DNA of 27,320 nt from Longimicrobiales bacterium (GCA_038259715.1 JBBSOM010000001.1:1-27320); one strand, 5' to 3'; counted from the first letter of the stretch, positions 11,136 to 22,358 are shown. Notes: a model not told the origin generated them from the letters alone. Program-made: numbers and translations.

Positions 11136-14100
11136 TCAGCGCACCCGGCCGCTCACCGCTTGCCACTCCCCGCGCAACGTGGTCAGCATCCCGGTCAGGA
11201 ATGTCTTCTGGGAGGCCTGATCCGTCGTGGGCGGCCCGACCCAGTCGTCCACGGCGCCACGCAACCGTGACAGGCGGGACGTCAGTTCCCGGGTCTCCCG
11301 GTCCAGGTCGTGGACCTTCCCCGACACATCGTCCGGCGCCTTGGCCTCACCCTTGTCGAGGCGCTGCATGGCCGCGTTCACGTCGTGCGCGAGCGCCTGC
11401 GCTTCCAGCAGCGTGGTCGTGATCTCCTGGAGCGTGACGCGCCACTGGTGGCGTACCAGCGGGTCGACGTGGATGCGGGGGTCGTCCTCGACGCGCACCG
11501 CGCGCTCCTGTGTGACGCCGCCCGCCGTCATGCGCACCGTGTAGAGACCCGGGTCGACACGGGCGCCCTGGAGCGCGCTGCGGAAGCCACCCTCCCCGCT
11601 CTCCGCGCTCTCCCCGGGCTCGGTCGGCGCGGTCGCATCCAGCGAATATCTCAGATTCCATTCGGCGCGGTTCACGCCGCGCGCATGCGGCCCGGCCACG
11701 GTCGCGACGTGCCCTCCAGCCGCGTCGAAGACGTCGATCGACACTTCGGTATTCGCGGCGCGCACCCAATAGTCGAGGAGCGCGGCGGCGGGGGGGTTTT
11801 CCCCTTCGAAGATCATGTTGCCCGTGTGCGCGCGTTCGCTGCGGTAACGCGTCTCCTGGGCCGGATCGATCGGGAACAGGTACGCGGCCTGGGCCGCGAC
11901 CTCGGGGGTGAGGTTCTGCAGCGCGCTCACCTGATCGAGGATCCAAACGCCGCGGCCGTGCGTGCCGAGCACCAGGTCGTTGTCCCGCGGGTGGACCAGG
12001 AGGTCGTTCACGGGCACGGTGGGCAGGCCGCCGGTAAGCTCGACCCAGTGGGTGCCCTGGTCCCACGACCAGTACACACCGAATTCGGTGCCGAGGTAGA
12101 GCACGTCGGGGTTTCGGCGGTCCTCGAAGAGAGAGCGCGCCACGCGGTCCGAGGGAAGGTCGCCGACGATCGACGTCCAGGTCCGGCCGTGGTCGTCGGA
12201 GCGCCACAGGTAGTTGGCGTAGTCGTCGTTGCGGTAGTTCGTGACCGCGAGGTAGACGCGGCCGTCGTGCGCCTTCGAGGCGTGCAGGTCGTTGACCCAC
12301 CCGAGCTTGGGCATACCCGGCACGTTGGCCGTCACGTTCGTCCAGGTCTCGCCGCCGTCCGGGGTGACCTGCACCTGGCCGTCATCCGTGCCGACGTACA
12401 GTTCGCCCGGTGTGAACTCGGACTCGGCGATGGCGCTGATCGTCGGCCAATAGGGGATGCCGTCGTCGAGCGAGAGCGTGAAGGTGTCCGGACGTTCACC
12501 CATGATCTCGAGCGTGCGCCGGTCGGTGCCGGTGGTCGGGCTTCCGATCGCTTCCCATGTGTCGCCGCGGTCGGTGCTGCGGTAGAGCTTGTCGAGCCCC
12601 GCATAAAGGGTGTTCGGATCGTGCGGGCTCAGGGTGAACGGTCCGTCCCAGTTGCCCGGCGCCATCGCGTTGCCGAGGCGCTCCTTCGGGTTCTTCAGGT
12701 CCGGCCACGTCGTCCAGTTGCGCCGGTCCCCGATATAGCCTTCGGGCTGATCCGGCCGGATGTCGCGGCCCTCACCGGTCACGATGTCGTTGCGGGTCAG
12801 GCCAAGGTACTGGCTCTCGGAGTAGAGGATGCGGTTGTTCGTCGTGTCGACCCGGGATTGGAACCCGTCGCCGCCGCCCCAGCGGACCCAGTCCTGGTTC
12901 AGGATCCCTTCCGCGCGGTACACCTGGGTGGGGCCCGCCCAACTTCCGTTGTCCTGCAAGCCGCCGTACACGTTGTACGGCACCGCGTTGTCGACGTCGA
13001 CGTGGTACCACTGCGAGAGCGGAAGGTCCGTGACGAACAGGAAGTGGTTGCCGCGGTCGTAGCTGATGCCCAGCCCGCCGTCGTCGGCCTTCATGACATG
13101 GTTCGAGTCGTGCGGGTCCACCCACACGAAGCGGTCGTCGCCGTGCGTGCGGTCCTCGCGCGGTACGGTGAACGTCTTGCCGGCGTCGTCCGAATACGAG
13201 TACGCGTTCAGCATGTAGACGCGCTGGTCGTCGTTCGGGTCCACCGTGGGCTGACTCGCGTACATCGGGCGAGGATTCCAGTCGCTCTGGAACGTCCACG
13301 TGGCACCCCCGTCGTCGGAACGGTAGAGGCCGGCGCCAGTCTGTTGGTATGCGGTCGACGCGTTGTAGCGTTCACCCTGCTCGACGCTCACGTACAGGAT
13401 GCGCGGGTCCTTCGGGTACACGGCGATGCCGATGCGGCCGATCACGCCCGTGGGAAGTCCGTTGTCGAGTCCGGCGTTGGTCAGCTTGGTCCAGTTTTCA
13501 CCGCCGTCCGTCGACTTGTAGAGCCCGCTCCCGGGCCCGCCACCGTGGAAGCCCCAGGGCCGGCGCCGACGTTGGTACATGGCGGCGTAGACCGTGCGCG
13601 GGTTCGCCGGATCGATGGCGACATCCGCTGCGCCGGTTTCCGCGTCCACGTACAGGACCTTCCGCCACGTCTGACCGCCGTCGGTGGACTTGAAGAGTCC
13701 GCGCTCTTCGTTCGGGCCCCAGAGGTGTCCCATGGCCGCGACGTAGAGGGTGTTCACGTCCGTCGGGTCGAGCGCAACGCGGCCGATTTCCTTGGTGTCA
13801 CCGAGCCCCATGTTGTGCCACGTCCCGCCGCCGTCCGTGGACTTGTAGACGCCGTCTCCCCACCCGTTGCTCTGGCGGCTCGCGCGCTCGCCCGTGCCCA
13901 CCCAGACGATACTGGTATCGATCTGGCTCACGGCGATGTCACCGACCGAGTGGGTGGCCTCCCGGTAGAACACGGGCTGGAAGCGCACGCCGTTGTCCGT
14001 GGTCTTCCAGACGCCACCCGTGGCCGCGGCGACGTAGAAGACGCGCGCGTCCTTCTCCACGACCGCGATGTCGACGATGCGTCCGCTCACCACGGCTGGG

Positions 14101-14231
14101 CCGATCTCGCGGGGCCGGAGACCGGCGACGTCGGCCTGGGACAACGTCTGCCCGGATGCGAAAGACGGGACCGCGACGAGGATGGACGTCGCGACCATCA
14201 CAGTTCGAAGCGCGAAATGGGAACGGATCAA
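11136..14231 (-). CDS. Large secreted BNR/Asp-box (VPS10/sortilin-like) beta-propeller protein, putative glycosyl hydrolase, ~1031 aa
   Basis: Repeated Asp-boxes (KTTDNG, KSTDGG x3, RSDDGG, SYDRG, RSTDRG, RSDDHG), plus IGPAVVSGRI, YGGLQDNGSW and LVLGTHGRGVWI, with a helical C-terminal tail. Start is uncertain: TTG 14231 (GGAG, 7-nt spacer) or ATG 14198. Confidence 0.88.
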   Translation of the reverse strand: MIRSHFALRTVMVATSILVAVPSFASGQTLSQADVAGLRPREIGPAVVSGRIVDIAVVEKDARVFYVAAATGGVWKTTDNGVRFQPVFYREATHSVGDIAVSQIDTSIVWVGTGERASRQSNGWGDGVYKSTDGGGTWHNMGLGDTKEIGRVALDPTDVNTLYVAAMGHLWGPNEERGLFKSTDGGQTWRKVLYVDAETGAADVAIDPANPRTVYAAMYQRRRRPWGFHGGGPGSGLYKSTDGGENWTKLTNAGLDNGLPTGVIGRIGIAVYPKDPRILYVSVEQGERYNASTAYQQTGAGLYRSDDGGATWTFQSDWNPRPMYASQPTVDPNDDQRVYMLNAYSYSDDAGKTFTVPREDRTHGDDRFVWVDPHDSNHVMKADDGGLGISYDRGNHFLFVTDLPLSQWYHVDVDNAVPYNVYGGLQDNGSWAGPTQVYRAEGILNQDWVRWGGGDGFQSRVDTTNNRILYSESQYLGLTRNDIVTGEGRDIRPDQPEGYIGDRRNWTTWPDLKNPKERLGNAMAPGNWDGPFTLSPHDPNTLYAGLDKLYRSTDRGDTWEAIGSPTTGTDRRTLEIMGERPDTFTLSLDDGIPYWPTISAIAESEFTPGELYVGTDDGQVQVTPDGGETWTNVTANVPGMPKLGWVNDLHASKAHDGRVYLAVTNYRNDDYANYLWRSDDHGRTWTSIVGDLPSDRVARSLFEDRRNPDVLYLGTEFGVYWSWDQGTHWVELTGGLPTVPVNDLLVHPRDNDLVLGTHGRGVWILDQVSALQNLTPEVAAQAAYLFPIDPAQETRYRSERAHTGNMIFEGENPPAAALLDYWVRAANTEVSIDVFDAAGGHVATVAGPHARGVNRAEWNLRYSLDATAPTEPGESAESGEGGFRSALQGARVDPGLYTVRMTAGGVTQERAVRVEDDPRIHVDPLVRHQWRVTLQEITTTLLEAQALAHDVNAAMQRLDKGEAKAPDDVSGKVHDLDRETRELTSRLSRLRGAVDDWVGPPTTDQASQKTFLTGMLTTLRGEWQAVSGRVR

Positions 14232-14372: not shown

Positions 14373-15797
14373 ATGCTTCTCCGTCGCTTCTACGACGACA
14401 AGCTCGCGCAGGCCAGCTATATGGTCGGTTGTCAGGCCACGGGCGAGGCCCTCGTCGTCGACCCGCACCGTGACGTCGACGTCTACGTGACCGCGGCCGA
14501 GCAGGAAGGCATGGCGATCCGGTGGGTCGGCGAGACCCACATCCATGCCGACTACCTCTCGGGTTCCCGGGAACTGGCGGCACGCGCGGGCGCGGGCCTG
14601 CTCCTGTCCGGAGACGCTCCTCCCGAGTGGCGCTACGCCTTCGCGGAGGGCGACGGCGCCCGACTCGTGCACGACGGGGATGAGGTCCGCCTGGGTAAGA
14701 TCGGCATCCGCATTCTCCATACGCCCGGACACACTCCCGAGCACATCTCGTTCATGATCACGGACGGCGCGGCTTCGGACCAACCCATGGGTGTACTCAC
14801 GGGCGACTTCGTGTTCGTCGGGGACGTGGGCCGCCCCGACCTGCTCGAAAAGGCGGCCGGGGTGAAGGGCACGATGGAGTATGGGGCCAGAGTGCTCTAC
14901 CGGTCGCTCCAACGTTTCCGGCAATTGCCCGACTACCTTCAACTGTTGCCGGGACATGGCGCCGGTTCCGCCTGCGGAAAGGCGCTCGGGTCGGTTCCCA
15001 CGTCGACGCTCGGGTACGAGAAGCTCGTGAATTGGGCGTTTCAGTGCACGACGGAGGAAGAGTTCGTGGCCCGGGTACTCGAGGACCAACCCGAGCCGCC
15101 CCGGTACTTCGCCGAGATGAAGCGGATGAACCGTGACGGCCCCGCGATCCTCGGATCAATGCCGGCACCGCCGCGCCTGCCGGACGACGCGCTGGCGAGC
15201 GCACTGTCCTCCGGCGATCCTCTCGTCGATACGCGGCCGCGTGCGGTCTTCGCCGGGGGTCATGTCCCCGGCACCCTGAACATCCCGCTCGACCGCTCCT
15301 TCCCGAACTGGGCAGGGTGGTTCCTCCCGTACGACCGGCCGATCCGACTCATCGCGGAAGGAGCGGCGCAGGCGCGCGAGGCGGTGCGCGACCTGGTGTT
15401 GATCGGGCTCGACCGCGTTGCCGGTTGGTTCGACGCGTCGGCGGTGGAGGCGTGGGCGGCCCGGGAGGGGCCGCTCGCGACGTACGCCGTCCTCGACTGG
15501 GAGGGCGCGGAGCGGGCGGTCCGCGACGAGGGAGCCGTGCTGGTGGACGTGCGCAACCAGACGGAATGGAACGATTCCCACGTCCCGGGTGCGCACCACG
15601 TGCACCTCGGTTACCTGCGTGAGCGTGCGGGCGAGTTGCCGCGGGATCGGCCGCTGCTGGTATACTGCCGTACCGGAGCGCGCTCGGCGATCGCCGCCAG
15701 CATTCTGCGGGCGGAAGGCTTCGGCGACGTGGCGAACGTCGACGGCGGGATCACGGCACGGATCCGGCAAGGGCTCCCGGTGGAGGCTGCGGACTGA
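14373..15797 (+). CDS. MBL-fold persulfide dioxygenase-rhodanese fusion (CstB-like: PDO, pseudo-rhodanese, rhodanese), 474 aa
   Basis: Fe ligands in THIHAD, PGHTPEH and FVGDVGRPD. Conserved GHGAGSACGK cysteine. The first rhodanese domain lacks Cys; the second has VYCRTGARS. GGAGG RBS upstream. Confidence 0.88.
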   Translation: MLLRRFYDDKLAQASYMVGCQATGEALVVDPHRDVDVYVTAAEQEGMAIRWVGETHIHADYLSGSRELAARAGAGLLLSGDAPPEWRYAFAEGDGARLVHDGDEVRLGKIGIRILHTPGHTPEHISFMITDGAASDQPMGVLTGDFVFVGDVGRPDLLEKAAGVKGTMEYGARVLYRSLQRFRQLPDYLQLLPGHGAGSACGKALGSVPTSTLGYEKLVNWAFQCTTEEEFVARVLEDQPEPPRYFAEMKRMNRDGPAILGSMPAPPRLPDDALASALSSGDPLVDTRPRAVFAGGHVPGTLNIPLDRSFPNWAGWFLPYDRPIRLIAEGAAQAREAVRDLVLIGLDRVAGWFDASAVEAWAAREGPLATYAVLDWEGAERAVRDEGAVLVDVRNQTEWNDSHVPGAHHVHLGYLRERAGELPRDRPLLVYCRTGARSAIAASILRAEGFGDVANVDGGITARIRQGLPVEAAD

Positions 15798-17055: not shown

Positions 17056-17586
17056 CTACGGAGCGTTCGCCACCCGCTCGATCACGCGGACGTTCTCGGT
17101 GTCCAGCGGACTGAAACGACCGATCCACAGGTGCCGGACCACACCCTCGGCATCGAGCAGGAACGTTTCGGGCACGCCCACCGTGGTGAAGCGGCGTACG
17201 AAGCGCTGGCCCGGGTCGTGCCAGATCGGGAAGTCCACGCCCGCGTCGGCCAGGAACGCGTGGATCTGGTCGCGGGCGCCTGCGGCGTCGATGCTCACGC
17301 CCACGACCTGGAGGCGGTCCCCCATCTGCTCATGAAGGGCCTGCAAGTCGGGCATCTCCTGCCGACATGGGACGCACCACGTAGCCCAGAGATTGAGCAG
17401 GACGGGCCGGCCGCGGAGCGCGGCGAGATCCACGCTGTCGCCCTGGAGGGACCGGGCGCCGTACTCCGGCGCCCGGTCCCCCTCGGCCACGGGACGGTGG
17501 GCGCCCGGGCCCGACCCGCCACAGGACGCCACCGCCGCCGCCACGGCCGTCATCCACACGGCCGCCGGCGGCGTTAGTCGGCTCAT
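17056..17586 (-). CDS. TlpA/ResA family thiol-disulfide oxidoreductase, probable lipoprotein, 176 aa
   Basis: LLNLWATWCVPCRQEMP (CxxC) and GVPETFLLD (cis-Pro loop). Lipobox-like VASC. ATGA overlap with the upstream gene. Confidence 0.92.
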   Translation of the reverse strand: MSRLTPPAAVWMTAVAAAVASCGGSGPGAHRPVAEGDRAPEYGARSLQGDSVDLAALRGRPVLLNLWATWCVPCRQEMPDLQALHEQMGDRLQVVGVSIDAAGARDQIHAFLADAGVDFPIWHDPGQRFVRRFTTVGVPETFLLDAEGVVRHLWIGRFSPLDTENVRVIERVANAP

Positions 17587-18896
17587 GACGGCGTCACGCC
17601 ACGAAACCGGACTGCGTCACCCTCGAGCCAGGCGACCACGGCCCCACCGTTCAGCGGCGCGATGGCGGGGTTGGATCCGGGGGTGACCACGGGGTCGCCG
17701 GCCTGGGCGTTCCCGGCGCGTGCGTTGCTCAGCAGAAAGGATGGGGCCTCCTCCCGCCGGTCCTCCCATGCGACCCATGCACCGTCGTGCCCATCGGGAG
17801 CCAGCGCGACCTGGGAAGGCGGCACCCACCCTCCGGCGAGGAGGGGCGCCGCGCTCGCAAAGGTCCGTCCGCCGTTGCTCGACACCGCGTGATACATCCC
17901 GGCGCCACTGTCTCGACCCGTGTACCACGCCACATGCAGGCCGCCCGCGGCATCCACCGTGAGGGCGGGGCCGGCGTGGGGACACCCCGGAAAGACCCAT
18001 CCGTCGTCCGCCACCTTGACCGGCGCCTTCCAGGTGCGGCCGCCGTCCGTGGAGCGCGCCACCACGACGTCACGGACGTCCCCCTCGAAGATCTTCCGCC
18101 ATGCCACGAAGAGCGTGCCGTCGGGCGCGGCCGCGAGCGCCGTGCGGCAACAGGGGCACGTCTCCGTGTCGACCACTATGCCGGGCTCGAAGCTTTCGCC
18201 TCCGTTGTGCGATACGGCGACCCGGACGCTCGAGCTGGACCCGTCGGACATGGCCATGTCGCTGTGCGACATTTCGGCGTGCGCCACGGTGCCGTCCGTT
18301 CGCGTCTCCGGGCCGCCGGATTCCGCGTTCGCGCTCTCTCGCCCATCGAGCCAGGACACGACCACGGAGCCATCCGGCGCCACCAAGAGGTTGTGGAACG
18401 TGTGGGAGGCCGGCTGGCCGCCCGCGTCGTCGTTCACGGTGATGGCGGGAGCGAACGTGCGCCCGCCGTCCTCCGAACGCGCCAGGCGGAGGTCACTCGC
18501 GGGAAAGCGGCGGCCTTCGATGATGGTATTGTTCTGCCAGGCCACGTAGACGTGACCGCCGGGCCCGGCCGCGACCTGCGCCGGTGCCTGGAGATGCGGG
18601 GCTGCATCCTGGTCGATGTCGTTCACGCGCACGGGCGCTCCGGTCGCCGATCCCCCGACGACCGTGGCCAACCGGACGTTGCCCGTCGAGCCTTCCGCGC
18701 CCTCCACCCAGGCCACGTACGCCGTGTCACTCCCCGGCGCCACCGCCACGGTGGGATTGCTCGCCCCCATCTCCGCCAGTGTGACCATGGGGCCCAAGGT
18801 CACAGGGTGCTCGGTGCATCCCGCCCATAGCAGGACCGCGATCGCGGCCGTGGATCCGGCCCGCACCATCGTGTTCATCCGCATCATCGAGTTCAT
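17583..18896 (-). CDS. Asp-box (sialidase-like fold) beta-propeller lipoprotein with Cys motifs, 437 aa
   Basis: Lipobox LWAGC. Asp-boxes SEDGGRTF, SHNGGESF, STDGGRTW and SSNGGRTF. Motifs TCPCCRT and GCPHAGP. ATG 18896 overlaps the receptor stop (ATGA). Confidence 0.85.
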   Translation of the reverse strand: MNSMMRMNTMVRAGSTAAIAVLLWAGCTEHPVTLGPMVTLAEMGASNPTVAVAPGSDTAYVAWVEGAEGSTGNVRLATVVGGSATGAPVRVNDIDQDAAPHLQAPAQVAAGPGGHVYVAWQNNTIIEGRRFPASDLRLARSEDGGRTFAPAITVNDDAGGQPASHTFHNLLVAPDGSVVVSWLDGRESANAESGGPETRTDGTVAHAEMSHSDMAMSDGSSSSVRVAVSHNGGESFEPGIVVDTETCPCCRTALAAAPDGTLFVAWRKIFEGDVRDVVVARSTDGGRTWKAPVKVADDGWVFPGCPHAGPALTVDAAGGLHVAWYTGRDSGAGMYHAVSSNGGRTFASAAPLLAGGWVPPSQVALAPDGHDGAWVAWEDRREEAPSFLLSNARAGNAQAGDPVVTPGSNPAIAPLNGGAVVAWLEGDAVRFRGVTPS

Positions 18897-21223
18897 CGGA
18901 TGCGCACTCCCGCGTAGAGCGTGCGTGGCATGCCCGGCGCGAGCTCCTGGCCGCGGAACGCGTTGTAGCTCGCCCGTTCCGCATATCGTGTGTCCCCCAG
19001 ATTGTCCAGGCGCGCGAACAGGTCGAGTCGCTCCGTCACCGAATACGTGACCCGTGCATTCAGCAGGTCGTGACCCTCGTACTCGTTCTCGTTGGCGGCG
19101 TCCATCCAGTACGGACCCACCCTCACCCATTCGAGGGTCGCGTGCGCACCGCCCAGCCAGGTCGGCGACAACTCCAGGCGGACGTTGCCGATCTGGTGGG
19201 GCGCGAACTCCATCTCCTTGCCGCTGTAGTTGGTGCCATCGTCCAGGCGCCAGTCCTGATAGGTATGCTTCGCCACGGAGTAGGACACGTCGACCTCCAC
19301 GCCCGGCGCCAGGCCGAGCCCCACGCCCACCTCCACACCACGGTGTAGGGTCTCCCCCGCGTTCACGCTCTCCGTGTGTCCGTCGTCGTGCCGATAGTCC
19401 AGGACGTCGTCCAACTTGGACATCCGGTAAAGCGCTACGTCATAGCTGACGCGACTCCCGACGTGGCCGCGCAGGCCGGCCTCCAGCGAGTTGGCCTTCA
19501 CGGGCTCCAGATCCACGGTGTTGGTGGCTGAGCCCTGGCGGAAGAGCTGACCCTCCGAGGGCGCGCGGAAGCCCCTGCGGAACGATGCGAACAGGTTCAT
19601 CCCGTCGGTGGCCTGGAACGTGATGCCGACCTTCGGGCTCAGAGCCGCGAATCCGGGCGTTCCGTCCCCAGGTCGGCGGTGAGACCCGGTCTGGAGCGGC
19701 GCGAGGTGCGTCTGATAGTCGTATCCGAGCACGTCGAATCGGAGCCCCCCGCTCAGGTGGATGCCGTCGGTGGGTGTGACCTCGGCGTGCACATAAGGGG
19801 ACACCTGGTGGAACGTCACGTCGTAGTCGTACAGCGTTGCGCCGTCGGCATAAGAGGTGAAGACCTTGCCGTCCTTCGCGGGCGTGATCGAGTGCTCCCG
19901 GTAACTGCCCGGCGAGTAGTCCACGTCCACGCCCGCGATGACCCTGCCTTTTTGACCGAGCATCGGCCGGTCCACCTTGGCCAAGATGCCCACCGAGCTG
20001 TTCTCGGTTCTATAGATGGACGGGTCGTAGGTCAACGACCAATTGGGGAGGATGTCCATCGAGTTGTACCGGGCGTACGGCGTCAAACTCAACTTCCACG
20101 TCGCCGCTTGGCGCTCGTACGCGGCAGACGCGCGGAACGCCTGGACGTCCCGATAGGAAATGGGCGTGTAGTTCACGGTGGGGTCCGACTCGAAATCGCT
20201 CCGCGACACCGCGGAACTCCCTGCCGTGTTCTGGTCGATGGAGGAGTATGTCAGGACGGTCTTCAGGAAGGAGCCTTCGCCTGCGCGCCGATCCCAGCGA
20301 AGCGTGCCGGAATACCGGTCGTACTGTGTTCCCTCGCGCCACCCGTCGGTCCGGGTCGCGTTGAAGTCGGCTCGAAGGCCATTGCCGGCAGGGGTCCCGC
20401 TCAGCGATGCCAGGAGCCGCTTGTATCCGTATGCGCCACCCTCGAGGGAAAGTTCGGCTTCCGTGTCCTGGGACGGCGCCCGGGTCCCGACGTTGATGAC
20501 GCCGCCGATGGCATCGCTGCCATAGAGCGCGCTCGCCGGCCCCTTCATGACCTCGATGCGATCGGCCTGGGGGACGTTGACCTCGTACAGCGCATTGTGG
20601 TTGAAAAAGCCGGTGGACCGGGTCGGCACGCCGTCCTCGAGATACAGGTACACCGGGCTCGTCGACAACGGCTGGCGGATGGCGGTCATGTGGCCTTCTC
20701 CGCCCGTCACATTGACCCAGACCCCGGGCACCTGGCCCATGATCTCCGAGGGGTGGGCCGGGTGCACGTCTCGTAGAGCCGCCGACCCGATGACCCCCAC
20801 GGACGCGGCTACCTCCGAGAGGTTCTGCGCCTCCCTCGACGCGGTCACCACAACCTCCGGAATGGAGAGAGCCCGGTCGGCCAGCCGGAACGTGACGTCG
20901 GCGGTGCCCCCGGGCGTCACCGTCACGCTCTGGCGCCCGGTACCGTAGCCCACCCTTTCCGCCACCAACTCCCAACTGCCCGGGCGCAGACCCACCAGAA
21001 CGAATCGCCCGCTGCGATCGGTGAGCGCTCGCCGGCCCGCGGCCGGGACGAAGACGTCCACGGATGAAAGCGCCGCGCCGGTCCCGTCCGCGACCACCGA
21101 CCCGCGCACGGCGCCCGTCTCCTGCGCCGACAGAGGTCCCACGACAGCGAAAAGCCCCACGGTCAACGCGACATAGGTGTGCAGGGGCGATGCGCCCCAC
21201 CCGTACCTCAGCCTTCCCACCAT
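18893..21223 (-). CDS. TonB-dependent receptor with N-terminal carboxypeptidase-regulatory-like domain, ~776 aa
   Basis: Signal peptide ending LSA|QE. N-domain GAVRGSV...TDRSGRF...ERVGY. TonB box PEVVVTASR. Plug IEVMKGPASALYGSDAIGGVIN. C-terminal FARLDNLGD...PRTLYAGVRIR. GAGGGG RBS precedes ATG 21223; an alternative TTG is at 21229. Confidence 0.95.
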   Translation of the reverse strand: MVGRLRYGWGASPLHTYVALTVGLFAVVGPLSAQETGAVRGSVVADGTGAALSSVDVFVPAAGRRALTDRSGRFVLVGLRPGSWELVAERVGYGTGRQSVTVTPGGTADVTFRLADRALSIPEVVVTASREAQNLSEVAASVGVIGSAALRDVHPAHPSEIMGQVPGVWVNVTGGEGHMTAIRQPLSTSPVYLYLEDGVPTRSTGFFNHNALYEVNVPQADRIEVMKGPASALYGSDAIGGVINVGTRAPSQDTEAELSLEGGAYGYKRLLASLSGTPAGNGLRADFNATRTDGWREGTQYDRYSGTLRWDRRAGEGSFLKTVLTYSSIDQNTAGSSAVSRSDFESDPTVNYTPISYRDVQAFRASAAYERQAATWKLSLTPYARYNSMDILPNWSLTYDPSIYRTENSSVGILAKVDRPMLGQKGRVIAGVDVDYSPGSYREHSITPAKDGKVFTSYADGATLYDYDVTFHQVSPYVHAEVTPTDGIHLSGGLRFDVLGYDYQTHLAPLQTGSHRRPGDGTPGFAALSPKVGITFQATDGMNLFASFRRGFRAPSEGQLFRQGSATNTVDLEPVKANSLEAGLRGHVGSRVSYDVALYRMSKLDDVLDYRHDDGHTESVNAGETLHRGVEVGVGLGLAPGVEVDVSYSVAKHTYQDWRLDDGTNYSGKEMEFAPHQIGNVRLELSPTWLGGAHATLEWVRVGPYWMDAANENEYEGHDLLNARVTYSVTERLDLFARLDNLGDTRYAERASYNAFRGQELAPGMPRTLYAGVRIR

Positions 21224-21339
21224 GTCCAATCCCCTCGTTCATGAAGGGCTACGGCGCAATGAGGCCACCGCTGCCCACGGCAATAGGATCGACGCATGGC
21301 CCGGACGCGCCGGGACATACGCAGAGAAGCAAAACGGTC

Positions 21340-21723
21340 CTAGCCGTGGATCGGGGGTGCGGTGGCGAAGGGAAGGAGGCGGGCCGCCTGCCGGAGAGGT
21401 GGCTCGGAGCGCGGGGTGCCGGCGGTCGCCGTTGTGCTCGCTGCGGCCAATGTCAACGCAGGAGCGTCGTGGCCGCCGATGAATCCAACGACTCCCCCCG
21501 CCTGACACTGTCCCACGCAGGTGCACGCCCGATGCGAGGGCGGCGTCCCCGTGTCGCCATCGGCGGGGGTCATCGCATGATGGGCGCCGAGAGCGGCTCC
21601 GCCCAATGCGAGCGCGTCGTGGTGCGGGCAAGGATGGAAGCCCAGCGCTTCGCCGAGCGTCGCGACCTGGAACGCGACGGCGAACAGGAGGGCTGTCAAC
21701 CTGAGGATGGGCTTCCGTGTCAC
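21340..21723 (-). CDS. Small Cys/His-rich DUF2946/CruR-like leader protein, ~127 aa
   Basis: Hydrophobic N-terminus (LRLTALLFAVAFQVATLGEA), then HPCPHHD, AHHAM, CTCVGQC, an Ala/Pro/Thr-rich linker and C-terminal LLPFATAPPIHG*. It lies directly upstream of a TBDT. The GTG start has only a weak RBS. Confidence 0.72.
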   Translation of the reverse strand: MTRKPILRLTALLFAVAFQVATLGEALGFHPCPHHDALALGGAALGAHHAMTPADGDTGTPPSHRACTCVGQCQAGGVVGFIGGHDAPALTLAAASTTATAGTPRSEPPLRQAARLLPFATAPPIHG

Positions 21724-21890: not shown

Positions 21891-22358
21891 ATGCGCGCCG
21901 TCTACGTTCTGGCCTTCGCCGCCACCCTCGCCACTCCATGCCTGTTCATGCCGGGCCTGTCCGTGCAGGGCCTATCCGCGCAAGCGGCCCCCCGCATCGC
22001 CCATCAGCCCGCCGACGGCCGTCCGTACAGCGCCGCCGTACAGGTGGGCGACACGTATTGGTTCAGCGGCAAGGTCGGCGCCACCGCCGAGACCCGGGCG
22101 ATGACGGACGGGCGGGTCGCCGCCGAGACCCGGAACATCATGGAGCAGTTCAAGTCGCTCTTCGCCGAGTTGGGGCTCGACTTCGGAAACGTCGTGAAGG
22201 GGACCATCTATCTGGCCGACATCGACGGGTACGCGGAGCTGAACCAGGTGTATGGCGAGTACTTCAAGAGCGATCCTCCGGCACGGGAGGCGGTGGCGGT
22301 CAAGGACCTCGTGGGAGGAGCCGCGCTCGAGATCTCCTTCATCGCGGTGAAGCGCTGA
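21891..22358 (+). CDS. RidA/YjgF/YER057c family protein with N-terminal signal-peptide-like extension, 155 aa
   Basis: Motifs YSAAVQVGDTYWFSG, ELNQVYGEYF, PPAR (catalytic Arg) and LEISFIA. Hydrophobic N-terminus. GAGGAG RBS. Confidence 0.88.
   Translation: MRAVYVLAFAATLATPCLFMPGLSVQGLSAQAAPRIAHQPADGRPYSAAVQVGDTYWFSGKVGATAETRAMTDGRVAAETRNIMEQFKSLFAELGLDFGNVVKGTIYLADIDGYAELNQVYGEYFKSDPPAREAVAVKDLVGGAALEISFIAVKR

Follow-up and report, generated by a model that had tools for sequence, protein, structure and literature searches.

A candidate arrest-peptide-controlled metal uptake operon with a cysteine-rich propeller lipoprotein in a Longimicrobiales bacterium

Introduction

Copper acquisition in Gram-negative bacteria is poorly understood, and OprC and the recent CrtA-CrpH pair are, to our knowledge, the only copper routes through a TonB-dependent transporter (TBDT) that have been studied. 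Here, an operon of a Longimicrobiales bacterium from a soil metagenome is described (GCA_038259715.1, JBBSOM010000001.1:1-27320; the assembly comprises 4.1 Mb in 915 contigs), which encodes a small exported leader peptide, a TBDT, a Cys-rich beta-propeller lipoprotein and a thiol:disulfide oxidoreductase of the TlpA type. The whole stretch of 27,320 nucleotides, called the window in the following, has a G+C content of approximately 68%, and its closest relatives, according to a locus search based on the TBDT, are metagenome-assembled genomes (MAGs) of Gemmatimonadales and Longimicrobiales. With moderate confidence, the operon is interpreted as an uptake system for a metal, most likely copper, that is controlled by an arrest peptide and that employs a thiol-based periplasmic acceptor or reductase.

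A leader of the arrest type in front of a metal TBDT is a known kind of arrangement, while the family of Arg-less leader motifs and the module made of TBDT, propeller and thioredoxin-like protein are new. The first-pass annotation, made from the DNA alone, knew of no functional description of this gene combination. None was found either in the papers on CruR, CutF and CrtA, which report no propeller/BNR or TlpA protein (the CruR paper lists only AhpC_TSA genes among the operon members), or in a general literature search on BNR/sialidase proteins, copper limitation and TonB.

Organization of the locus

The four genes lie on the minus strand at the coordinates proposed in the first-pass annotation, and the last three are coupled, as it had claimed, by ATGA overlaps in which the stop codon of one gene merges with the start codon of the next (Table 1). 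The upstream edge is marked by a divergent RidA-like gene and the downstream edge by a convergent HEAT-repeat gene, and the four genes are therefore taken as one operon; a scan of the locus for promoters and terminators gave nothing useful. All the Cys and His/Met motifs cited earlier could be located, namely HPCPHH and CTCVGQC in the leader, GHM in the plug of the TBDT, CPCC, CPH and a His/Met patch in the lipoprotein and CxxC in TlpA.

Table 1. Features of the operon in the window and of the related loci with a PepSY_TM gene
Feature	Coordinates	Strand	Description
Leader open reading frame	21340-21723	minus	127 codons, GTG start; CruR-like candidate arrest peptide and metal sensor
HPCPHH (H30-P-C32-P-H-H)	21619-21636	minus	First of the Cys/His clusters, directly behind the signal peptide
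CxCxxxC (C67-T-C69-V-G-Q-C73)	21505-21525	minus	Presumed metal-sensing site
LLPFATAPP	21352-21378	minus	Candidate arrest motif, followed by three codons and the stop
Leader-TBDT spacer	21230-21339	minus	About 110 nt; presumed site of the regulatory decision
TBDT gene	18893-21229	minus	778 amino acids from the TTG start; ATG at 21223
ATGA overlap	18893-18896	minus	TBDT stop and lipoprotein start
Propeller lipoprotein gene	17583-18896	minus	437 amino acids; lipobox LWAGC27; sialidase-like beta-propeller
C247-P-C249-C250	18147-18158	minus	Invariant Cys triad, followed by invariant R251
C305-P306-H307	17976-17984	minus	Invariant Cys/His pair
ATGA overlap	17583-17586	minus	Lipoprotein stop and TlpA start
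TlpA gene	17056-17586	minus	176 amino acids; lipobox VASC22; TlpA/ResA-type thiol:disulfide oxidoreductase
TlpA active site (W70-C71-V-P-C74)	17365-17376	minus	Residues counted by hand
PepSY_TM replacement genes	L018, L020, L022, L026, L027 (e.g., L027:3522-5096)		515-540 amino acids; follows the TBDT

The leader peptide and its family

From its N-terminus, the leader is composed of an export signal, the HPCPHH cluster, a His-rich linker, CTCVGQC, a spacer of 49 residues, LLPFATAPP and the residues IHG before the stop codon, so that its C-terminal end reads LLPFATAPPIHG-stop. Neither Pfam nor NCBIfam contains a match for it. A word-indexed homologue search retrieved only five relatives, and the same search with a true DUF2946 protein retrieved the query alone, because both families are too divergent for this kind of search. 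A profile search against 1.84 billion cluster representatives matched 2,468 of them at E<=1e-3 and 1,258 at E<=1e-10, nearly all of which are 115-170 amino acids long and aligned end to end. In an alignment of 19 leaders, only R8, C67, C69, P123 and P124 are invariant, C32 of the HPCPHH cluster is kept in at least 90% of the sequences, and each of the 19 begins with a basic region containing R8 followed by a hydrophobic stretch, as is expected of an export signal.

The leaders of the related loci have a common design: behind the export signal come a Cys/His cluster, typically HPCPHH, a linker that is rich in His, at times in Met, and differs greatly in length, CxCxxxC, a spacer and a conserved terminal block that ends in PP. 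The motif statistics of the family were derived from the best 150 profile matches. CxCxxxC is present in 138 of them, and the terminal block has the consensus PP[FYH][LFV]LP[FY]A[NTQ][AG]PP, in which the ten residues preceding the PP are strongly conserved; Met-rich stretches occur in several leaders. The PP is preceded by TA in 35 sequences, by QA in 27, by NG in 27, by NA in 24 and by HA in 7. Total lengths range from 114 to 223 amino acids, while the last Cys and the leading Pro of the PP are 48-50 residues apart in 128 of 147 sequences, with a mode of 49 (50 residues, from C73 to P123, in the window leader). Between the PP and the stop, there are 2-5 residues in 133 of 149 leaders and exactly three in 82 of these 149.

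This design closely resembles that of the copper sensor CruR of Bordetella pertussis (Pfam family DUF2946), an upstream open reading frame product with an export signal, a CXXC motif, 45 intervening residues and an RAPP motif three residues before its end (PMC9426467), in which C93 and P141 are 48 residues apart. A reference set of 31 bona fide DUF2946 genes, collected from alphaproteobacterial genomes and one gammaproteobacterial genome, gave a Cys-PP spacing of 46-55 residues, again with a mode of 49, and RAPP followed by three residues. Hence, the earlier proposal of a CruR-analogous leader is supported by the architecture: in both cases, the first gene encodes a small exported protein with a Cys motif, a Cys-PP distance of about 48-49 residues and three residues between the Pro-Pro and the stop, and the spacer behind this gene is long, as is typical of CruR operons. 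The two differ in that the window leader falls below the DUF2946 threshold, carries CxCxxxC and the additional HPCPHH instead of CXXC, and belongs to a family with Thr, Asn or Gln in place of the Arg. Because the Cys-PP spacing is fixed in a protein whose other parts differ in length by tens of residues, the leader is read as a putative co-translational sensor; judged from the sequences, such a spacing, the PP close to the stop and the first position in the operon are hallmarks of a sensor of this kind, and not of a folded domain.

Common ancestry with DUF2946 is less clear. The window leader has no match to PF11162 (gathering threshold 23.7 bits) even at E<=10, and seven of its 19 aligned relatives give full-length matches below the threshold, the best at E=0.026; the leaders of L070, L023 and L025 show sub-threshold, full-length matches of this type. 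A global hhalign comparison of the leader family with the 31 DUF2946 sequences is collinear (P=6e-4), with signal aligned on signal, CxCxxxC on CXXC and APP on RAPP, whereas the local alignment does not reach beyond the C-terminal 15 columns (P=0.0019, hhalign probability 14%); hhalign probabilities amount to 11-14% overall. The similarity is significant only at the C-terminal motif, and the leader family is either a remote offshoot of DUF2946 or has arrived at the CruR design by convergence. In L070 (Terasakiella), which has the same operon type, the leader carries CLSC and ends in RAPPRFV-stop.

Similar layouts are found in other leaders. CutF of Rhodobacter capsulatus, a Sec-exported leader of the DUF2946 type whose Cys motif precedes the C-terminal Pro-rich motif by about 45 residues, senses periplasmic copper during its translation (PMC9973294; bioRxiv 10.1101/2025.02.05.636593). 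In that system, copper turns on the detoxifying multicopper oxidase CutO via an mRNA stem-loop, whereas the genes of the window are of the uptake type and have no significant stem-loop. ApdA, ApdP and SecM-like peptides (PMC10951233, PMC12992588) are small secreted proteins as well, which are encoded upstream of the regulated gene and have an xAPP/xGPP core close to the C-terminus, but the family described here has Thr, Asn, Gln or His instead of Arg, and conservation of the ten residues in front of the core is much stronger than in the RAPP peptides. In none of the 150 sequences is A/G-P-P preceded by Arg. According to published work, this residue of RAPP/RAGP is irreplaceable in SecM, and the R139A substitution in CruR abolishes arrest in vitro (PMC12992588). 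Any arrest in the leader family would thus use a new motif, in which the ten conserved residues in front of the PP, which would lie in the upper exit tunnel, perhaps offset the missing Arg.

Alternatively, the leader could simply be a small exported metal-binding protein, such as a chaperone, a buffer or a metallophore-like molecule, with a C-terminus needed for folding, sorting or binding of a partner. The absence of an Arg deemed essential for RAPP-type arrest speaks for this explanation, as do the lack of a detectable conserved mRNA switch and the existence of the DUF2946-like proteins CzcI and CopL, which have no Pro motif and for which a role in regulation by metal binding is discussed. 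It is nevertheless considered improbable, for it leaves unexplained why the Cys-PP distance stays at 48-50 residues, why the PP lies so close to the stop and why the gene always comes first and is followed by a spacer, with both spacing and PP position equal to the CruR/DUF2946 rule.

The spacer between the leader and the TBDT gene was inspected for RNA structure, but its folding z-score of -0.75 indicates none that is significant. In the minimum free energy structure of the window, the last codons of the leader do pair with the start region of the TBDT gene; over 31 loci, this pairing has a mean z-score of -0.44 (-34.4 kcal/mol for cognate versus -32.4 kcal/mol for non-cognate combinations) and is not a conserved feature.

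Genes headed by the leader family

Leaders of this family occur in 61 of 151 sampled Gemmatimonadota genomes, in a total of 83 copies, and in 25 of the 29 sampled loci a TBDT gene lies directly downstream (several of the gene contexts looked up lay on contigs too short to inform). Only six of these 25 transporters belong to the family of the window TBDT; one is OprC-like and 18 are members of other families. As it heads many TBDT families, the leader does not suffice to identify the metal. The same genome contains a paralogous leader of 150 amino acids on contig C233 (L116:3608-4060, minus strand), which has a Met-rich linker and ends in LLPFPLGPPIRA. The TBDT behind it (L116:1155-3551, minus strand) has TIGR01778 as its best match (3.5e-61) and hits OprC in the PDB at 1.4e-40. 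The copper ligands Met, His and Met of OprC are aligned, and a Gly takes the place of the Cys. Another member of the leader family precedes CopC. Homologues of CruR are known to head operons of OprC, CrtA, CopC, YcnI and PCuAC, and in its gene context the leader family behaves, as far as the sequences tell, like the CruR homologues, because its copies head TBDT, OprC-like and CopC genes.

Two variant arrangements were noted on the side. In a MAG of the 'Cytophagia' Bacteroidota type (L034:3138-7304), the gene order is leader-propeller-TBDT, and the Cys-rich leader has another sequence, which ends in APPVFQPPEVC. In L006:1377-7283, a single leader is followed by two tandem TBDTs of the window family, with no propeller downstream.

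The propeller lipoprotein

The AlphaFold2 model of the lipoprotein is confident (pLDDT 89.5) and displays a six-bladed-type propeller with two Asp-boxes. In Foldseek, the best PDB matches are sialidases with a TM score of approximately 0.5, and otherwise generic ulvan-lyase or 'BNR' propellers, while Pfam reports a partial BNR_2 match (model positions 1-103 of 277) and an Asp-box. Fold searches of the PDB, Swiss-Prot models and the ESM Atlas yielded no match with functional information. Although fold and Asp-boxes are shared with GH33 sialidases and other BNR propellers, assignment to GH33 was rejected: the FRIP motif of sialidases is absent from 55 of 55 homologues, BNR_2 is only partially covered, and the invariant Cys, His, Trp and Arg residues are unrelated to the sialidase catalytic set. 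The ESM Atlas also contains a cluster of 255 BNR/Asp-box propellers from Nitrososphaerota that matches the model at a TM score of 0.82. Nitrososphaerota are ammonia-oxidising archaea and heavily copper-dependent.

Among the 55 homologues, which are 20-54% identical, the invariant residues are S141, F167, W182, C247, C249, C250, R251, R275, W300, C305, H307, G309, W324 and P410. The mature protein of the window contains exactly four Cys, all of them invariant. Of the three lipoprotein motifs that had been highlighted from the sequence, CPCC and CPH thus hold throughout the family, while the His/Met patch (residues ~205-216) is real but not conserved. The patch was discarded as a conserved copper site; it lies in a low-confidence loop of variable length and composition, in which several relatives also have His/Met-rich inserts. 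The signal of the lipoprotein is of the Sec type and lacks a twin-arginine motif, which would argue against a pre-assembled cofactor.

TlpA and its predicted complex with the propeller

The product of the last gene matches AhpC-TSA (2.9e-24) and Redoxin (2.5e-21) in Pfam, and TlpA (3.4e-26) and ResA (2.9e-25) in NCBIfam, both of the latter under the equivalog cut-offs. A thioredoxin fold, an export signal and the CxxC already pointed out in the first-pass annotation, which is a WCVPC at residues 70-74, identify it as a protein of the TlpA/ResA type. With TlpA of Bradyrhizobium and ResA of Bacillus, it has in common the fold, the WCxPC site, a membrane or lipid anchor and, in some relatives, a neighbouring CcdA; it differs from them in its scores under the equivalog cut-offs and in its predicted client, which is the propeller and not ScoI, CoxB or apocytochrome c. 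CcdA supplies electrons to TlpA/ResA-type proteins, and the known clients of TlpA are copper-site proteins.

In models of the TlpA-propeller complex, three runs reached ipSAE values of 0.82, 0.82 and 0.83, compared to 0.01 for the best control. Of the 78 solved complexes used for calibration, 51 reached this mark, as did 2 of 108 mismatched pairs. The predicted interface brings propeller residues 248-249 and 302-307 together with TlpA residues 70-75 (WCVPCR). As this interface spans both CPCC and CPH, the two motifs would form a single surface patch in the model, and the prediction supports, without being proof of it, the binding of TlpA to the propeller at the Cys/His patch. The genomic record is in line with such a partnership: a thioredoxin-fold CxxC gene directly follows the propeller gene in 35 of 62 loci, and it belongs to a WATWCxPC subfamily of the TlpA type in Gemmatimonadota and to an FWSxDCPPC subfamily in Proteobacteria. 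The presence of two unrelated thioredoxin subfamilies in the same slot argues for a functional link to the propeller.

Alternatively, the propeller Cys could form structural disulfides, with TlpA as a mere neighbour that has general redox tasks, such as the maturation of cytochrome c or of an oxidase. Disulfide bonds are common among periplasmic Cys, clients of other kinds are known for TlpA/ResA homologues, and 27 of the 62 loci lack the thioredoxin gene. This explanation is regarded as very improbable in view of the two thioredoxin subfamilies that occupy the slot in different phyla, the ATGA overlap of the propeller and TlpA genes in the window and the predicted interface, which centres the CVPC on CPCC and GCPH. 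A pair of vicinal Cys flanked by a third, together with a Cys-Pro-His, is moreover atypical for structural disulfides.

The TonB-dependent transporter

Pfam divides the TBDT into a CarboxypepD_reg domain (residues 41-116), a Plug (137-244) and a barrel (314-744). It contains no Cys, has invariant His at positions 159, 180, 211 and 629, and bears many invariant Arg in the barrel. A plug motif GHM had been proposed; G177-E-G-H180 is indeed invariant in 34 homologues, while M181 is found in only about half of them. The plug-apex segment RSTGFFNHNALY (204-215) is invariant and specific to this TBDT family, the members of which share 45-64% identity and come from Gemmatimonadota, Gamma- and Betaproteobacteria, Nitrospinota, Bacteroidota and Acidobacteriota.

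The transporter was compared to the known copper TBDTs. Membership in OprC/NosA was dismissed, as TIGR01778 is not among the best 25 NCBIfam matches and no Cys is available for a CxxxM/HxM site. The chain 9rvq (732 residues), which is presumed to be CrtA because of its length and date, gives a match of 1.7e-28, and only over the C-terminal 290 residues; PqqU scores better (8e-50), and the window TBDT is not a member of the CrtA/PA0434 sequence cluster. In composition and gene neighbourhood, it nonetheless resembles CrtA: it has no Cys and few conserved His, and PepSY_TM, PCuAC, ExbBD and TonB are found next to its relatives. CrtA is reported to import copper on small carboxylate chelators; neither Cys nor Met is among its conserved residues, and of its two conserved His, one is essential (PMC12914433). 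The window TBDT is thus a member of another family that, like CrtA, does without conserved Cys or Met and has conserved His.

The nearest solved relatives over the full length are PqqU (9c4o, 8e-50) and YncD (6v81, 7e-49), which raises the question of whether the cargo is pyrroloquinoline quinone (PQQ) or a related quinone, with the propeller as a redox enzyme or binder whose Cys patch is a redox-active disulfide serviced by TlpA. PqqU homologues are reported to be common in Gammaproteobacteria, Bacteroidota and Gemmatimonadetes (PMC12124388), a distribution similar to that of the window family, and the many invariant barrel Arg would also suit such a cargo. In L070, a divergent pair of pqqB-/pqqC-like genes (Lactamase_B_2 and PQQC family; L070:2471-4212, minus strand) lies beside an operon of leader, TBDT, propeller, thioredoxin-like protein, TonB and ExbBD, and it is because of this neighbourhood that the explanation is kept, at a low probability. 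Membership in PqqU was rejected, with a score against NF041535 of 111 bits where 1200 are required. The signature residues do not correspond to conserved ones: Y99 of PqqU falls in a deletion, R304 corresponds to N389 (an invariant R387 lies two residues before that position) and R365 aligns to a variable position. The plug apex has its own invariant RSTGFFNHNALY, and other contigs of the same genome encode better PqqU-like fragments (161.8 and 141.6 bits versus 74.8 for the window TBDT). In the two cases that have been studied, a Cys/His leader built like CruR senses metal, and the PCuAC, PepSY_TM and CcdA neighbours point to copper.

Conservation and gene neighbourhoods

To survey synteny, as the first-pass annotation had suggested, 80 related loci were gathered via the TBDT, 69 of which extend at least 1 kb beyond the TBDT gene and are informative. 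The pairing of TBDT and propeller held up well, with the two genes adjoining in 62 of the 69 loci and the pair spread over Gemmatimonadota, Pseudomonadota, Nitrospinota, Bacteroidota and Acidobacteriota. The expected co-occurrence of the other two genes was found only in part, since the leader is present in 30 of the 67 loci whose upstream sequence is long enough and the thioredoxin gene is limited to the 35 of 62 loci mentioned above. Leader and TlpA are therefore accessories of a TBDT-propeller core and not universal parts of it.

Five loci have a PepSY_TM gene in place of the propeller gene (Table 1), and two have neither. The replacement proteins have no detectable homology to the propeller; as a side observation, Asp-box-like SxDGGxxW motifs are found in their periplasmic loops. 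CrpH of B. pertussis is a PepSY_TM protein of the haem-dependent reductase type that supports haem-copper oxidases (PMC13038864). The operon of the window is akin to cruR-crtA(bfrG)-crpH in having a periplasmic redox partner behind the TBDT, and the five relatives with PepSY_TM even carry the same partner as in Bordetella, while PCuAC, TonB and ExbBD accompany some others. It differs in its partner, which is a Cys-rich propeller together with TlpA and not the haem protein CrpH. The idea of an analogous system with a different periplasmic module, already put forward from the sequence, gains from this exchange.

Further neighbours give hints to the cargo. PCuAC follows the operon in L044 and L054 (3.6e-36 and 8.3e-39), CcdA/DsbD_TM follows TlpA in four Gemmatimonadota loci, and TonB, ExbB and ExbD are added in proteobacterial loci. 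No genes for glycan use, siderophore synthesis or B12 were seen in the loci looked through, the annotation of which was non-exhaustive. Copper is probably the metal, by analogy, and it is favoured because every metal-specific neighbour found is a copper protein and because of the comparison with the known clients of TlpA. The same architecture and mechanism could also serve zinc, nickel, cobalt, cadmium or a metallophore complex, which is considered unlikely. The His-rich linker of the leader suits zinc or nickel no less than Cu(II), CutF-like proteins whose motifs are exclusively His-rich adjoin nickel and cobalt genes according to the literature, the leader family heads many different TBDT families, and the TBDT has conserved His but neither Cys nor Met to offer. 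On the other hand, the named neighbours are all copper proteins (PCuAC twice, CopC and the OprC-like TBDT behind the paralogous leader), several leaders have Met-rich stretches, the clients known for TlpA have copper sites, and no Zur- or Nik-type neighbours were seen.

Several loci add a divergent RegA-like response regulator and a histidine kinase. In the leaderless proteobacterial loci L056, L044, L019, L045, L050 and L074 (e.g., L056:2915-4785, minus strand), a RegA/ActR-like regulator (Response_reg and a Fis-type helix-turn-helix) and a multi-pass histidine kinase are encoded divergently upstream of the TBDT. They may represent an alternative transcriptional control that is linked to respiration.

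Three other genes of the window were recorded. The divergent RidA/L-PSP-family gene (21891-22358, plus strand) encodes an apparent signal peptide, and the same arrangement is seen in L125:820-1275 beside an unrelated copy of the leader family. At 11136-14200 (minus strand), shortly beyond the downstream side of the neighbourhood, a very large protein rich in Asp-boxes (SxDxGxTW), of the sortilin/VPS10 or BNR type, is encoded, as read by eye from the translated open reading frame. Also by eye, the product of ~14400-15797 (plus strand) has the look of a fusion of a metallo-beta-lactamase fold and a rhodanese, similar to persulfide dioxygenases.

Proposed mechanism

Ribosome stalling, its regulatory direction, the metal and the propeller chemistry are inferred in the following scheme, in which the leader would be translated and exported co-translationally. 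With the ribosome at LLPFAxAPP, the CxCxxxC motif would lie about 49 residues behind, just outside the tunnel and the translocon, in the same geometry as in CruR and CutF. When metal is low, the ribosome would dwell at the PP codons and the operon would be read through; once the Cys/His sites of the nascent peptide have bound metal, the dwell time would change and expression of the uptake genes would drop, as with CruR. The dwell at the two Pro codons would thus set transcription or translation across the 110-nt spacer into the TBDT gene, and the device downstream could be Rho, as for CruR, or the unmasking of a ribosome-binding site, as for CutF.

The TBDT would import the metal, probably as a small anionic chelate, because it lacks conserved Cys and Met and has conserved His and Arg, like CrtA. 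In the periplasm, the reduced patch of the propeller, made of three Cys and the Cys-His pair, may take the metal as thiolate-bound Cu(I), reduce a Cu(II) chelate, or do both, and TlpA, fed by CcdA in some relatives, would keep the Cys of the patch reduced. In the five related loci without a propeller, a haem-dependent PepSY_TM protein would take its place.

Several of the observations weigh against an arrest-controlled copper uptake system. The leader family lacks the Arg on which RAPP-type arrest depends, its local similarity to DUF2946 is confined to the terminal columns, and neither a structured spacer nor a conserved pairing of the leader end with the TBDT start accompanies it. It precedes mostly TBDTs of other families, and the window TBDT is closer to PqqU and YncD than to the presumed CrtA chain. 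In principle, two structural disulfides could account for the four invariant Cys in the periplasm, and the sequencing runs that contain the stretch consist of soil-metagenome DNA only.

A bolder form of the preferred interpretation is put forward tentatively and must be called doubtful. It holds that LLP[FY]A[NTQ][AG]PP is a new, Arg-independent class of arrest motif present in thousands of metal-sensing leaders, and, at the same time, that the CxCC/CPH propeller is a new thiol-based reductase of cupric chelates and acceptor of Cu(I), which is recharged by CcdA and TlpA and stands in for CrpH behind copper TBDTs in many phyla.

Significance

Surveys based on PF11162 or on RAPP/RGPP motifs would have missed the leader family described here. 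It constitutes a large natural test set for the question of whether the Arg of RAPP is indispensable or can be replaced by a conserved upstream segment. In addition to OprC and CrtA-CrpH, the locus points to a third, widespread module, composed of a TBDT and a Cys propeller, with or without a thioredoxin-fold partner. The range of this module, the periplasmic parts of which have no described function, includes sulfur- and iron-oxidising Proteobacteria.

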